From a virus (Duplodnaviria; Heunggongvirae; Uroviricota; Caudoviricetes): a stretch of 64,000 nt of DNA. Below the pieces are notes generated by a model that did no database searches, was not told where the DNA came from, and saw only the letters and a program-made list of their open reading frames with translations. This document shows positions 33,172 to 37,374 of this stretch, in pieces. The stretch covers positions 265,787 through 329,786 of the IMG/VR virus record IMGVR_UViG_3300015214_000024; one strand, written 5' to 3'. Each line of letters starts with the position of its first letter. Position 1 is the stretch's first letter. A program made the translations under genes and the position numbers.

Positions 33172-33263
33172 TGGCGGACAGTGAGGGATTTGAACCCTCG
33201 GAACCCCTTACGAGGTTCGGCACATTAGCAGTGTGCTGGTTTTAGCCACTCACCCAACTGTCC
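33172..33263 (-). tRNA. tRNA-Ser(GCT), canonical 7/5
   Basis: GGACAGT/ACTGTCC-G-CCA; GCACA-CTGCTAA-TGTGC; long V arm. Confidence 0.95.
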
Positions 33264-33271
33264 ATAAAATT

Positions 33272-33361
33272 TGGAGGAAGACGGGATAATCGAAATCCAC
33301 ACCATATTTCAGGTGCCCACTCCTTAGCAGGGAGGTCCAGAACCTTTCTGGTTCATCTTCC
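33272..33361 (-). tRNA. tRNA-Ser(GCT), 8/4-type, U73
   Basis: 8-bp GGAAGATG/CGTCTTCC, T-CCA, D stem CCAGA/TCTGG, CTCC-CTGCTAA-GGAG, 4-bp T stem GGAT/ATCC. Confidence 0.85.
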
Positions 33362-33368
33362 ATATATA

Positions 33369-33484
33369 CAACAAAGACAGGATTCGAACCTACGTGGTCC
33401 CAGGGCGTCAAATTAATTTGTCCGGATCCTAAGACCATCCCGCTTCTGGGCGGGCTACCTTAAACCTATCTCAGCCACTTCATT
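33369..33484 (-). ncRNA. tRNA-Ser-like RNA with 6-nt anticodon loop and hyper-extended variable arm
   Basis: AATGAAG/CTTTGTT-G, Ser-type D loop, CCCGC-CCAGAA-GCGGG, 10-bp TGGTCTTAGG/CCTGGGACCA V stem, GGTTCGAATCC. Confidence 0.6.
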
Positions 33485-33488
33485 GTAT

Positions 33489-33579
33489 TGGAGGAGCCGT
33501 GGGTACTCGAAACCCATACCGTTTTTTAGGTATCAACCGCTTTCCAGGCGGTGGTTGCGCCCTGGCAACTAACGACTCC
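33489..33579 (-). tRNA. tRNA-Ser(GGA), 8/4-type, U73
   Basis: GGAGTCGT/ACGGCTCC-T-CCA, D stem GTTGC/GCAAC, ACCGC-CTGGAAA-GCGGT, T stem GGGT/ACCC. Confidence 0.85.
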
Positions 33580-33585
33580 GCAAAT

Positions 33586-34257
33586 TTAAACTACTGTTCT
33601 TCCTTTATACCATCCTATTGGAATTACCATATCCTTTTTAATTTTCTGGTTTTTAGATCCGTCAGTAATCCACATAGTTCCGAATTGTGAATTTTTCCTT
33701 CCAGTTTGGAAGCCATCATTTTTTTCTTTCCATTTTTTAATAGCACTATCAGATTTAGATAATTTACTAAATTCTTTAGCTTTTTCTGGATTCAAGCTAT
33801 GGAATTCTTTCATAGCTTCAGAACCTTTAACCCATCCTTTACATTCCACAAACCGCAATCTTGCTTTTTCAAGTATCCATTCATAACCTGGTTTACCAAA
33901 TGGTGAAATAAATTTATTCCATTCTGCCTTAGTTTCAAATCCTCGATCTTTGTAATAAGAGCCTTCTAAGTTGTATATTGTAAAGCCACCAGTTCCGCCA
34001 AGCATTAAATTATAAGTATTGTTATCTTTTACAAAATCTTCGTTAACTATTTCACGTTCTTTATTATTCATATCATTTTCATTATCAAAAATATATAATG
34101 TTTCTTTATCAAAGTTTTTTATTCCATATTTTTCTATAGCAGATTTTATTAATTTTCCTGAACCCATATAGCCATCATCTAAATCATCAGTAATATGCTT
34201 GCCAATATAGATCTTACCATTTAGTTTGTTTGTTATTTTGTAAATTATATTAAACAT
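33586..34257 (-). mobile_element. Seg-like GIY-YIG homing endonuclease inside the tRNA array
   Basis: IIYKITNKLNGKIYIGKH...DDGYMGSG...YNL..GG; true start ATG 34257 (the upstream in-frame part is tRNA). Confidence 0.85.
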
Positions 34258-34277
34258 AAAAATCCATTCAATTTTTG

Positions 34278-34364
34278 AGGACAGTGTGGGATTCGAACCC
34301 ACGGGACCCTCGCAGGTCCTCCGGTTTTCAAGACCAGTGCAATCGGCCACTCTGCCAACTGTCC
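34278..34364 (-). tRNA. tRNA-Ser(TGA), canonical 7/5, U73
   Basis: GGACAGT/ACTGTCC-T; CTGGT-CTTGAAA-ACCGG; long V arm. Confidence 0.92.
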
Positions 34365-34372
34365 ATATATTT

Positions 34373-34461
34373 TGGCGGAGGGTAGGCGGAATCGAACCCC
34401 TGACCTTACGGTTCCACTAGTTTTCAAAACTAGGTGTGCATCCCCGGCACAATTACTCTCC
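34373..34461 (-). tRNA. tRNA-Ser(TGA), 8/4-like
   Basis: GGAGAGTA/TACCCTCC-G-CCA (one mismatch), D stem TGTGC/GCACA, CTAGT-TTTGAAA-ACTAG, bulged T stem. Confidence 0.8.
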
Positions 34462-35353: not shown

Positions 35354-36598
35354 TCAAAGGATAATTCGATCTGGAAAATATGGTTGAAGTATTTCAGGTA
35401 TTGCCACCCAGCCATCTGGCTGTTGATAATTTTCCAAAATAGCTACAAGAGTCCGACCAACAGCCAATCCGCTACCATTTAATGTATGGACCAAAGTAGT
35501 CTTTTTATCTCCTGGCAGCTTTACTCGTGCGGCCATACGTCGGGCCTGAAAATCGCCACAATTGCTGATCGAGCTAATTTCACGCCAAGCCTTTTGGCCC
35601 GGAAGCCAAACTTCCAAATCGTAAGTTTTTCTGGCGCCAAATCCCATATCACCCGCTGCTAATAAAACTCGCCTAAATGGTAAATCAAGTTTCTTAAGAA
35701 TCATTTCCGCAGCATTCAGCATATGCTGATGTTCATATCCGCTTTGGTCTGGAGTAGAAATGGTTACCATTTCTACTTTATGGAATTGATGTTGGCGTAT
35801 GAGCCCGTGAGTGTCTCTACCAGCACTGCCTGCTTCGGCCCTAAAGCACGGTGTTAGTCCAACCATACGCAATGGTAAATCACCATAATCCAAAATTTGA
35901 TTGGCAACCAAATTTGTCATTGGCACTTCGCCAGTTGGGATCAAATATCGACCATCTACGGTTTTAAACAAGTCCTCTTCAAATTTTGGAAGCTGACCGG
36001 TACCAAACATCGTTTGCTGATTCACCAAATAAGGAACATCTACTTCAGTAAAACCATATTCCTCAACGTGATGGTCAATCATAAACTGACCAATCACTCG
36101 GTGCAATTTAGCCAATGTGCCAGTCATCACATTAAAGCGAGTCCCTGCGATTTTTGTTGCTTGTTCAAAGTTAAATCCTGGAAGAAGGTGATGCTCTTTG
36201 ATTTCAAAATCAAATTCAGGAATGTCATCCTGATGTACTACAAGATTATTTTCCTCACCACCTTCTGGAACATCGTAGTGTGGAATATTTGGTACCTTAG
36301 CCCAAATGCTATCACGAACATCTTTCAACAAATCAACATTTTTCTTATAATGATCAATTTGCTCATTAGTTGCTTTTGCTTGTTCTTTCAGATCTTCAGC
36401 AGGTAATTTAAGCCTGTATGCATCACCAATTGCTTTATTAAGGTTGTTTCGTTCATTTTCAGCAGCTTGCAACTTTGTTGTATAAAGACGAAATTGCTCA
36501 TCAGCCCAAAACAAATCGTCAATTGCTCCTCCGCCGCGCCCCTTTAATGCACGTTTTACGGCTTCGCGATCAGTTCTGACATCATCAATATTAATCAT
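35354..36598 (-). CDS. serS: seryl-tRNA synthetase
   Basis: N-terminal coiled coil, GTGQLPKFEEDLF, LIPTGEVP, FRAEAGSAGRDT.GLIRQHQF.KVE, EISS.SNC.DFQARR, TLNGSGLAVGR. Confidence 0.97.
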   Translation of the reverse strand: MINIDDVRTDREAVKRALKGRGGGAIDDLFWADEQFRLYTTKLQAAENERNNLNKAIGDAYRLKLPAEDLKEQAKATNEQIDHYKKNVDLLKDVRDSIWAKVPNIPHYDVPEGGEENNLVVHQDDIPEFDFEIKEHHLLPGFNFEQATKIAGTRFNVMTGTLAKLHRVIGQFMIDHHVEEYGFTEVDVPYLVNQQTMFGTGQLPKFEEDLFKTVDGRYLIPTGEVPMTNLVANQILDYGDLPLRMVGLTPCFRAEAGSAGRDTHGLIRQHQFHKVEMVTISTPDQSGYEHQHMLNAAEMILKKLDLPFRRVLLAAGDMGFGARKTYDLEVWLPGQKAWREISSISNCGDFQARRMAARVKLPGDKKTTLVHTLNGSGLAVGRTLVAILENYQQPDGWVAIPEILQPYFPDRIIL

Positions 36599-37244
36599 TC
36601 CAAAAATCCTTCATTCCACCGTTCATATACGACTTGGCTGTAATAATTTTTCCCGTTCTTTCATCCCAAGCCTGATTATCCTGAAAACGAATTGTGCGAA
36701 TTTTATCACCACGCTGGCCAGAGCCACTTTCCTTATACTGTTCAGTCTTTAGACTAGAAAGAACAGCATTATCCATTGATTGTAACTTATTTGCTAGGGC
36801 CTGTCGAGCCTCTTGGTAATTAGATTCTCTAGAACGGCTTTGGCGTACTTCCACCAAACCTGTTGGAATATGGATCAATCTGCAGGAACATTGGTGCTTA
36901 TTTCGGTGTTGGCCGCCTTTACCTGTCCCAGAAAACCATTCTACCCGTAAATCGCTATCGCGTATTTCAGTTTTTTCCATTTTGGCGTCAATTAAAGCGA
37001 CCTTTACTGACGAAGTATGGACTCTGCCCCTGCGCTCAGTTGGAGGTACACGCTGGAAACGATGGCCGCCAACTTCTTTCTTAAGATTGTCGTTTGGTTT
37101 TTTTAGCTCAATAAAATAGCCTTGACCCTCTGGGCCGTGGCGGTGCAGTCAGCCATCAAGAGCTTTGAGGTATGAGTGATACAAATCTTTCGCTAATAAT
37201 TGAGCGTCTTTTCCGCCTTCACCAGGCATAATAACTAATTTCAT
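36591..37244 (-). CDS. RF1-like class I peptide chain release factor (lacks domain 1) with in-frame UGA at codon 32
   Basis: AAGGA RBS and ATG 37244; PGEGG.DA.L, then TGA (37149-37151), then E.GGHRFQRVPPTERRGRVHTS (PxT motif), GKGGQH.NK, R.DKIRT; 218 codons in one frame. Confidence 0.85.
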
Positions 37245-37319
37245 ATTTTTATTCCTTTTTAAAACAATAGAGTATTATCGTGTGAAATGTTAAATCACAA
37301 CGTCAATTTTCTTTAAGTT

Positions 37320-37340
37320 CTAAAAAAGAGTAAAACACAT
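37320..37340 (-). promoter_or_regulatory. UAG-terminated leader MCFTLF* occluding the release-factor SD
   Basis: AAGGA RBS; TTTTACTCTTTTTTAGAAC pairs with GTTTTAAAAAGGAATAAAA (RF SD); next in-frame stop TAA at 37290. Confidence 0.7.
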
Positions 37341-37374
37341 TAATCAGTCCTTTTTGATTTCTACCAATATTTAG

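Follow-up and report, generated by a model that had tools for sequence, protein, structure and literature searches.

A family-wide in-frame UGA in a shortened RF1-type release factor gene of huge phages: a putative read-through gate

How does a phage obtain a release factor from a gene whose reading frame meets a TGA at codon 32? This question is raised by a locus in a window of 64,000 nucleotides (the whole stretch of DNA that was analysed), which corresponds to bases 265787-329786 of a single 455,147-bp virus record (IMG/VR record IMGVR_UViG_3300015214_000024) rated complete by CheckV. The phage genome has a G+C content of 39% and carries 69 tRNA genes detected by ARAGORN, some of them unusual. 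On the minus strand of the window, an RF1-type release factor gene without domain 1 occupies positions 36591..37244 (217 codons, including one in-frame TGA). A Shine-Dalgarno (SD) sequence, AAGGA (37253..37257), stands 8 nt 5' of the ATG start codon (37244-37242), which opens a run of 31 sense codons ending at the TGA (37149..37151) in the context GAT GGC TGA CTG. Past the TGA, one unbroken frame runs through the P-P-T tripeptide of the stop-codon recognition loop (residues 67-69, 37038..37046) and the GGQ catalytic motif (residues 110-112, 36909..36917) to a TAA at 36593-36591. A listing of open reading frames (ORFs) made with translation table 11 showed only the 129-aa GGQ half of this gene. 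The initial annotation, made from the sequence of the window, had joined the two halves in one frame from the ATG at 37244 behind an intact ribosome-binding site; the frame proved correct in every sequence detail, and the SD sequence is in place.

We consider it likely, from comparisons of gene and protein sequences, that this shortened RF1-type gene is expressed by programmed UGA read-through at codon 32. The textbook case of recoding for feedback in release factor genes is the prfB frameshift; here, a huge-phage RF1-type family has an early in-frame UGA under strong selection, with the standard code otherwise. If the proposal is true, the family would be among the few bacterial or phage cases in which read-through is obligatory for any function, and it suggests a viral means of tuning termination in the infected cell. 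According to a 2016 review of recoding, no bacterial release factor gene was known to continue in the same frame after an early in-frame stop, be it for RF2 or for an RF1/UAG counterpart, and a self-sensing read-through loop, proposed for release factors before gene sequencing, was also called unknown (PMC5009743). A survey of huge phages lists RF1 and RF2 genes and leaves such an interruption unmentioned (PMC7162821). Our full-text literature search, with most subscription journals outside its coverage, returned no description of a UGA gate.

The shortened release factor and its in-frame TGA

Profile, phmmer, and structure comparisons were performed with the 217-residue protein with Trp written at the stop. 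In Pfam, the C-terminal end of the PCRF domain and the RF-1 domain were both matched above cut-off (RF-1, 69 bits versus a cut-off of 35), and the gene was the only one with an RF-1 domain in the phage genome. Among the NCBIfam models, prfA was matched over positions 110-334 of 347 with 134 bits, followed by prfB (90 bits), prfH (55 bits), and ArfB (18 bits). The prfA equivalog cut-off of 400 bits was not reached; by its sequence, the phage factor is a member of a divergent short subfamily and not a prfA equivalog. Domain 1 was missing, with the match beginning at profile position 110 and the leader and another gene lying upstream, and the homologues described below all start at the same point, likewise without domain 1.

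The phmmer alignment to solved RF1 chains crosses the stop and places codon 32 on a conserved Trp (Thermotoga RF1, ...KGW...; E. coli RF1, ...RRW...), in agreement with the position suggested for the TGA in the initial annotation. The recognition loop, QRVPPTE...GRVHTS, aligned with QRVPVTE/QRVPATE...GRIHTS of solved RF1, and the S-P-F of RF2 was not seen in it. Residues P68, T69, Q64, H76, G110, G111, and Q112 were invariant across 41 family proteins, with P67 and T77 present in at least 90%; the GGQ motif lies within GKGGQ and is invariant across the family. The AlphaFold model had a pLDDT of 87.4, and its best Foldseek matches in the PDB were ribosome-bound RF1 chains (E 5e-16, TM 0.66-0.68), RF1 chains thus leading the matches by sequence and by fold alike. 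The part N-terminal to the stop was modelled as a strand and a helix of the same domain-2 sheet as the rest. Profile scores, the P-x-T loop, and the predicted fold all support the RF1-type assignment made earlier, while UAG/UAA specificity itself rests on the motifs. Within the explanation that we hold likely as a whole, the gene product would be a functional class I release factor of RF1 type consisting of domains 2-4 only.

Contigs bridging the TGA were found in a source-like landfill run (X1) and in two independent samples (X3 and X5), one of the latter contigs carrying an organism-name label and the other (X5) being marine. The TGA was present in all of them, and around the site X3 and X5 differed from the window only in the codon before it, where GGT stood in place of the synonymous GGC. 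Further relatives were collected by an alignment-based scan of IMG/VR (340 loci encoding relatives), together with a metagenome scan and scans for which three diverse family proteins served as queries; 296 loci fetched from IMG/VR and JGI contigs yielded 133 distinct gene sequences, whose products shared 40-52% identity with the window protein. A megablast search against phage records gave no match, a single-protein scan of IMG/VR gave no close relative, and the metagenome scan gave relatives at 42-43% identity only.

All 133 distinct homologues contained exactly one internal stop, which was always TGA, a regularity far from what chance would give, and a codon alignment of 72 distinct genes placed it in the same column in 71. 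It was usually codon 36 after an SD sequence and ATG; an AAGGAG-like motif before an ATG about 35 codons 5' was found in nearly all homologues. Among moderately diverged pairs, the codons preceding the TGA gave a dN/dS of 0.09 and those following it one of 0.14, indicating purifying selection in one frame on either side of the stop. Although eight single substitutions would turn the TGA into a sense codon, it was kept while the proteins diverged by half, and the stop itself is therefore under selection. By these comparisons it looks like a gate that is built in, maintained by selection across the whole phage family, and not like damage.

The same data bear on the possibility of a pseudogene, in the form of a recent TGG-to-TGA nonsense mutation, or of a sequencing error. 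A single transition would suffice for this, and W stands at the site in a database protein (P0002) that is 95% identical and encoded on a 673-bp contig; against it stand the TGA in X1, X3, X5, and every homologue, the strong purifying selection on both halves, and the origin of the W-bearing database proteins, which come mostly from contigs of approximately 1-2 kb, on which gene callers can presumably switch to TGA=Trp. We give this explanation practically no chance, and it is already refuted unless the DNA records of the homologues are systematically wrong. The comparison of codon 32 in homologues (TGA or TGG) proposed in the initial annotation returned TGA, as did the contigs of the other samples.

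The database homologues fell into two length classes: proteins of 222-233 aa with W at the gate, mostly on 1-2 kb contigs, and proteins of 165-190 aa starting 3' of the gate, the class to which all matches on contigs >20 kb belonged. The closest database proteins (P0002-P0006) were 63-95% identical to the window protein and were compared as protein records. In the short-contig proteins, the W probably reflects translation of a TGA under a code-4 gene model. For annotation, this means that gene callers truncate such genes or probably apply a TGA=Trp code to them without notice.

A split gene, with a 31-residue peptide and a separately initiated C-terminal protein made by no read-through at all, would agree with the C-terminal proteins of 165-190 aa annotated in many homologues and with the 129-aa ORF that starts at Met89 in the window. 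However, the window has no in-frame ATG, GTG, or TTG after the TGA until Met89, which is not conserved and lies past the P-P-T loop. In family members, the next ATG was at a median distance of more than 100 codons, and the position of the next start of any kind varied widely. Amino-acid conservation reaches both sides of the TGA, and the N-terminal part belongs to the same modelled domain-2 sheet, which makes a split gene very unlikely. Read-through rather than decay, as first proposed for this gene, is favoured by the family-wide TGA, the purifying selection on both sides, the SD sequence and ATG about 35 codons 5', and the lack of a usable restart codon.

Distant short RF1-like genes (approximately 35% identical) from phages of 635-735 kb (LR745206, LR756504, LR756502, and LR756501) had one or two in-frame TGAs elsewhere, e.g., ...ASI*LQG.... 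In 49-kb samples from two of those genomes, table 11 tiled well, and reading TGA as sense changed the coverage from 85.5 to 88.8% and from 91.4 to 91.0%. Judged from these sequences, there may have been more than one origin, or more than one relocation, of the gate.

Genetic code and the proposed reading of the UGA

Simple ORF tiling of the phage genome with table 11 gave 643 ORFs covering 89.4% of its length, and these ended in TAA (364), TGA (236, 37%), or TAG (43, 7%), UAA and UAG together accounting for 64%. Coverage decreased to 88.2% when TGA was read as sense. In a crude genome screen, coding segments that continued in the same frame across a single TGA were no more frequent than those that did so across a TAA. 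In the first 80 family genes there were 167 TGG codons and no TGA besides the gate, so the other Trp sites of the family genes are TGG; the terminal stops of these genes were TAA in 66, TGA in 13, and TAG in one. ARAGORN detected two tRNA-Trp (CCA) genes in the genome and, with normal and relaxed thresholds (the relaxed output being dominated by spurious calls, among them all UCA calls), no credible UCA-anticodon tRNA or tRNA-Sec. No tRNA with the stop anticodon UCA was found in the flanks of 300 homologous loci. The phage keeps the standard code, and UGA is otherwise an ordinary stop.

These results decide largely against the explanation that TGA is a sense codon when the gene is expressed, through a TGA=Trp code of the phage or of its late genes, an opal-suppressor tRNA, or a selenocysteine system. 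Phages with a TGA=Trp code that carry RF1, a UCA tRNA, and TrpRS have been described (bioRxiv 10.1101/2021.08.26.457843), the present genome has unusual members among its 69 tRNAs, and phage suppressor tRNAs can escape detection. Nevertheless, more than a third of the ORFs end in TGA, coverage falls when TGA is taken as sense, and the family genes use TGG at their other Trp sites and partly end in TGA themselves. The genome yielded no credible tRNA-UCA or tRNA-Sec and the flanks of the 300 loci none at all, and RF1 has Trp, not Cys, at the aligned position; we regard this explanation as quite unlikely. Selenocysteine at codon 32 was rejected on the lack of a tRNA-Sec and on the aligned RF1 residue being Trp.

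Several observations were made on the tRNA genes themselves. Short RF1 genes of the family often stood beside tRNA genes: within 0.6-4 kb there were many Met, Lys, Asn, and Arg calls and 14 for Trp(CCA), and stop anticodons were absent from all of these. The second tRNA-Trp (CCA) of the phage (G000:C1:215657-215730) has U11:A24 in its D stem, whereas the first copy has C11:G24. The Hirsh UGA-suppressing tRNA-Trp and B. subtilis tRNA-Trp have U11:A24 as well, and this copy could matter for the reading of the gate. Two CTA-anticodon tRNAs of the amber-suppressor type (labelled Pyl by ARAGORN) lie outside the window (G000:C1:15281-15358 and 165512-165586); they and an RF1-type factor would oppose each other at UAG.

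The usual leak at UGA in bacteria is its near-cognate reading as Trp. Because the site corresponds to a conserved Trp of RF1, Trp-tRNA would be the simplest reader of this UGA: a near-cognate Trp-tRNA with anticodon CCA would insert Trp, and a full-length, decoding-competent factor would be made only if the ribosome reads through codon 32. Since UGA would be recognised by RF2 only and the product is of RF1 type by its motifs, the yield would be set by Trp-tRNA decoding versus RF2 termination, being low and rising when RF2 termination is slow relative to Trp-tRNA decoding. The phage would thereby be supplied, in limited dose and according to demand, with a factor for termination at UAA and UAG, the stops of 64% of the phage ORFs. 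Such an arrangement might keep the dose of the factor low, increase its amount under RF2 limitation, or postpone its synthesis until the phage tRNAs have built up.

We can more tentatively envisage a cross-wired sensor, in which the phage UAA/UAG factor is made only when host RF2 fails at a test UGA, or, more radically, a P-P-T factor that itself reads UGA; we consider this possible but doubtful. In the sensor, the phage factor would relieve RF2 of its UAA load and thereby close a feedback loop between two release-factor activities. If the P-P-T factor also reads UGA, the gate would become a self-sensing read-through loop.

The nucleotide context of the stop was skewed in several respects. The strongest termination context in E. 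coli is a U after UGA; the base after the TGA (+4) in the 133 genes was A in 88, G in 27, C in 18, and T in none. The preceding codon was GGC in 91 and GGT in 28 of the 133 genes (119/133 together), GGC making up approximately one third of Gly codons elsewhere. Leu at +1 was always CTN, with TTR representing 42% of Leu codons elsewhere, Arg at +3 was CGC in 75 of 92 cases versus 20 expected, and Leu at +4 was CTG in 51 of 72 versus 9 expected. Synonymous choice was far more skewed at +1 to +10 than at -10 to -2 of the same sequences, and the rate of synonymous differences was 0.20 in the 24 codons 3' of the stop versus 0.42-0.47 elsewhere. Synonymous constraint 3' of the stop is the pattern that would be expected of an RNA-level signal.

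A small hairpin (GCC-AC-GGCCC-AGA-GGGUC-AA-GGC; 37119..37141, minus strand) was predicted 7 nt 3' of the UGA and is a weakly evidenced candidate for the read-through context. A 4-bp helix in the same register, formed between Arg/Leu and Gly/Glu codons, was paired in 77% of cells versus 71% in shuffles, and a subgroup of homologues could form an 8-bp helix, two pairs of which showed compensatory changes.

Several points weigh against programmed read-through as we propose it. Shared ancestry of the homologues inflates the codon statistics. RNAalifold predicted no pairs and no consensus for 53 sequences from -30 to +92, the hairpin of the window (37141-37119) had a z-score of only -0.73, which is insignificant, and the sliding-window fold z-scores at +6 to +60, which were below the gene average, were matched at two other places in the gene; a 3' stimulator of read-through is a weak candidate only. 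The comparisons covered contig-level DNA, and basal leakiness at UGA would depend on the host. An RF1-type factor behind a UGA gate would, moreover, form no simple self-sensing loop, which leaves RF2 sensing and simple attenuation as alternatives.

Upstream leader and serS

The initial annotation had placed the gene under a double stop-codon control in which a ribosome paused at a leader UAG opens a helix over the SD sequence, slow UAG termination and leaky UGA termination both being needed, and had suggested that the seryl-tRNA synthetase gene (serS) is coupled to the release factor stop. The short upstream ORF (uORF), MCFTLF-TAG (ATG TGT TTT ACT CTT TTT TAG; 37320..37340, minus strand), does exist, and the predicted fold of lowest energy (-24.7 kcal/mol, z -3.46) has the SD region paired with the 3' part of the uORF, UAG included; both the uORF and its TAG were retained in the X3 and X5 variants. 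However, this control is not a feature of the family. The release factor start was at most 20 nt from, or overlapped, an upstream ORF in 32 of 69 homologues, which therefore have no room for a leader, and the short upstream ORFs of homologues ended in TAA 39 times, in TGA 21 times, and in TAG 14 times, so that TAG was not the preferred stop. In the near-identical marine X5 variant, the leader had 20 substitutions and three indels, among them a C-to-A substitution within the paired part and one additional A next to the SD sequence; in its fold (z -1.06) the GG of the SD sequence was unpaired. The helix in the present phage is A/U-rich, and the stretch from the uORF to the SD sequence contains a promoter-like site. 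We regard double control as improbable and the uORF as probably outside the mechanism.

The inner hairpin of the leader, UUGUGA...UCACA (window 37279-37300, minus strand), was replaced in the marine variant by UAUAGG...CCUAUG, pairing at the same place, which suggests a conserved hairpin between the cytidylyltransferase-like gene and the release factor gene.

As for serS (35354..36598, minus strand), its ATG (36598-36596) overlaps the release factor stop by 8 nt; the gene has its own AAGGA SD sequence, and no serS was found beside the release factor gene in 164 homologous loci, this neighbourhood being seen in the present phage only. The leader and the serS coupling are thus local to the present phage, and the double control is not supported.

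Comparison with known systems and gene neighbourhood

The closest parallel to the proposed gate is the programmed +1 frameshift of prfB, the RF2 gene. Both release factor genes have an early UGA (codon 26 in E. coli prfB and codon 32 here), and termination efficiency at that UGA sets the amount of full-length factor, as described for prfB and as proposed for the phage gene (PMC5009743). The phage gene differs in that it continues in frame 0, by read-through rather than a +1 shift, and in that its stop lacks a preceding SD-like element (AGGGGG) or slippery CUU, the family consensus being GGC TGA; the view of the initial annotation that this is a different solution from the prfB frameshift holds on these grounds. 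Moreover, in contrast to RF2, the RF1-type phage product should not, by its motifs, read the UGA that gates it, and feedback would have to pass through host RF2.

Programmed UGA read-through with Trp is known from the coat-A1 extension of Qbeta, and leaky UGA from Bacillus subtilis. The proposed reading of the phage gene resembles these cases in its low-frequency decoding by near-cognate tRNA-Trp, after which the frame continues. The Qbeta and B. subtilis cases, however, extend a protein that is already functional, whereas the phage stop lies inside the first domain, where termination would leave a useless 31-mer, and read-through would therefore be obligatory for the phage factor. With a context of 54 nt and a protein of 217 residues, the gene would offer a simple experimental system.

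The only such case cited in the 2016 review is an eRF1-type release factor gene of a giant virus, reported to need read-through of a stop codon and, in addition, a frameshift (PMC5009743). It shares with the phage gene the recoding of an in-frame stop in a viral release factor, but the factor is eukaryote-type and of an unrelated protein family, the virus infects amoebae, and two recoding events are involved. In TGA-recoded (code 4) phages, RF1 belongs to the code-change module, which is itself written in the standard code, and TGA codons occur in lysis genes (bioRxiv 10.1101/2021.08.26.457843). A phage-encoded RF1 is thus linked with an altered reading of UGA there as here, whereas the present phage uses the standard code throughout and has its single TGA inside the RF1 gene itself. 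PrfH, ArfB, and other GGQ proteins without domain 1 resemble the phage protein in lacking that domain and having the GGQ catalytic domain, but the phage protein retains the full codon-recognition superdomain with its P-x-T loop and, by the profile scores given above, matches prfA far better than prfH or ArfB.

The release factor gene sits in a cluster of translation genes comprising four tRNA-Ser genes, serS, and genes for a cytidylyltransferase-like protein, a PP-loop (TilS-like) enzyme, and a CCA-adding enzyme. The four tRNA-Ser genes (GCT, GGA, and 2 x TGA; window 33172-34461) adjoin the gene for the phage SerRS. A GIY-YIG (SegE-like) ORF (window 33586-34350), taken from its GTG start, overlaps two of them. 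Elsewhere in the genome, two tRNA-like genes (G000:C1:183179-183254 and 183417-183491) have anticodon loops of 8 nt (ctta) and 6 nt (cc), and a possible intron-containing tRNA with anticodon TTA (G000:C1:194127-194241) lies inside the main tRNA array.

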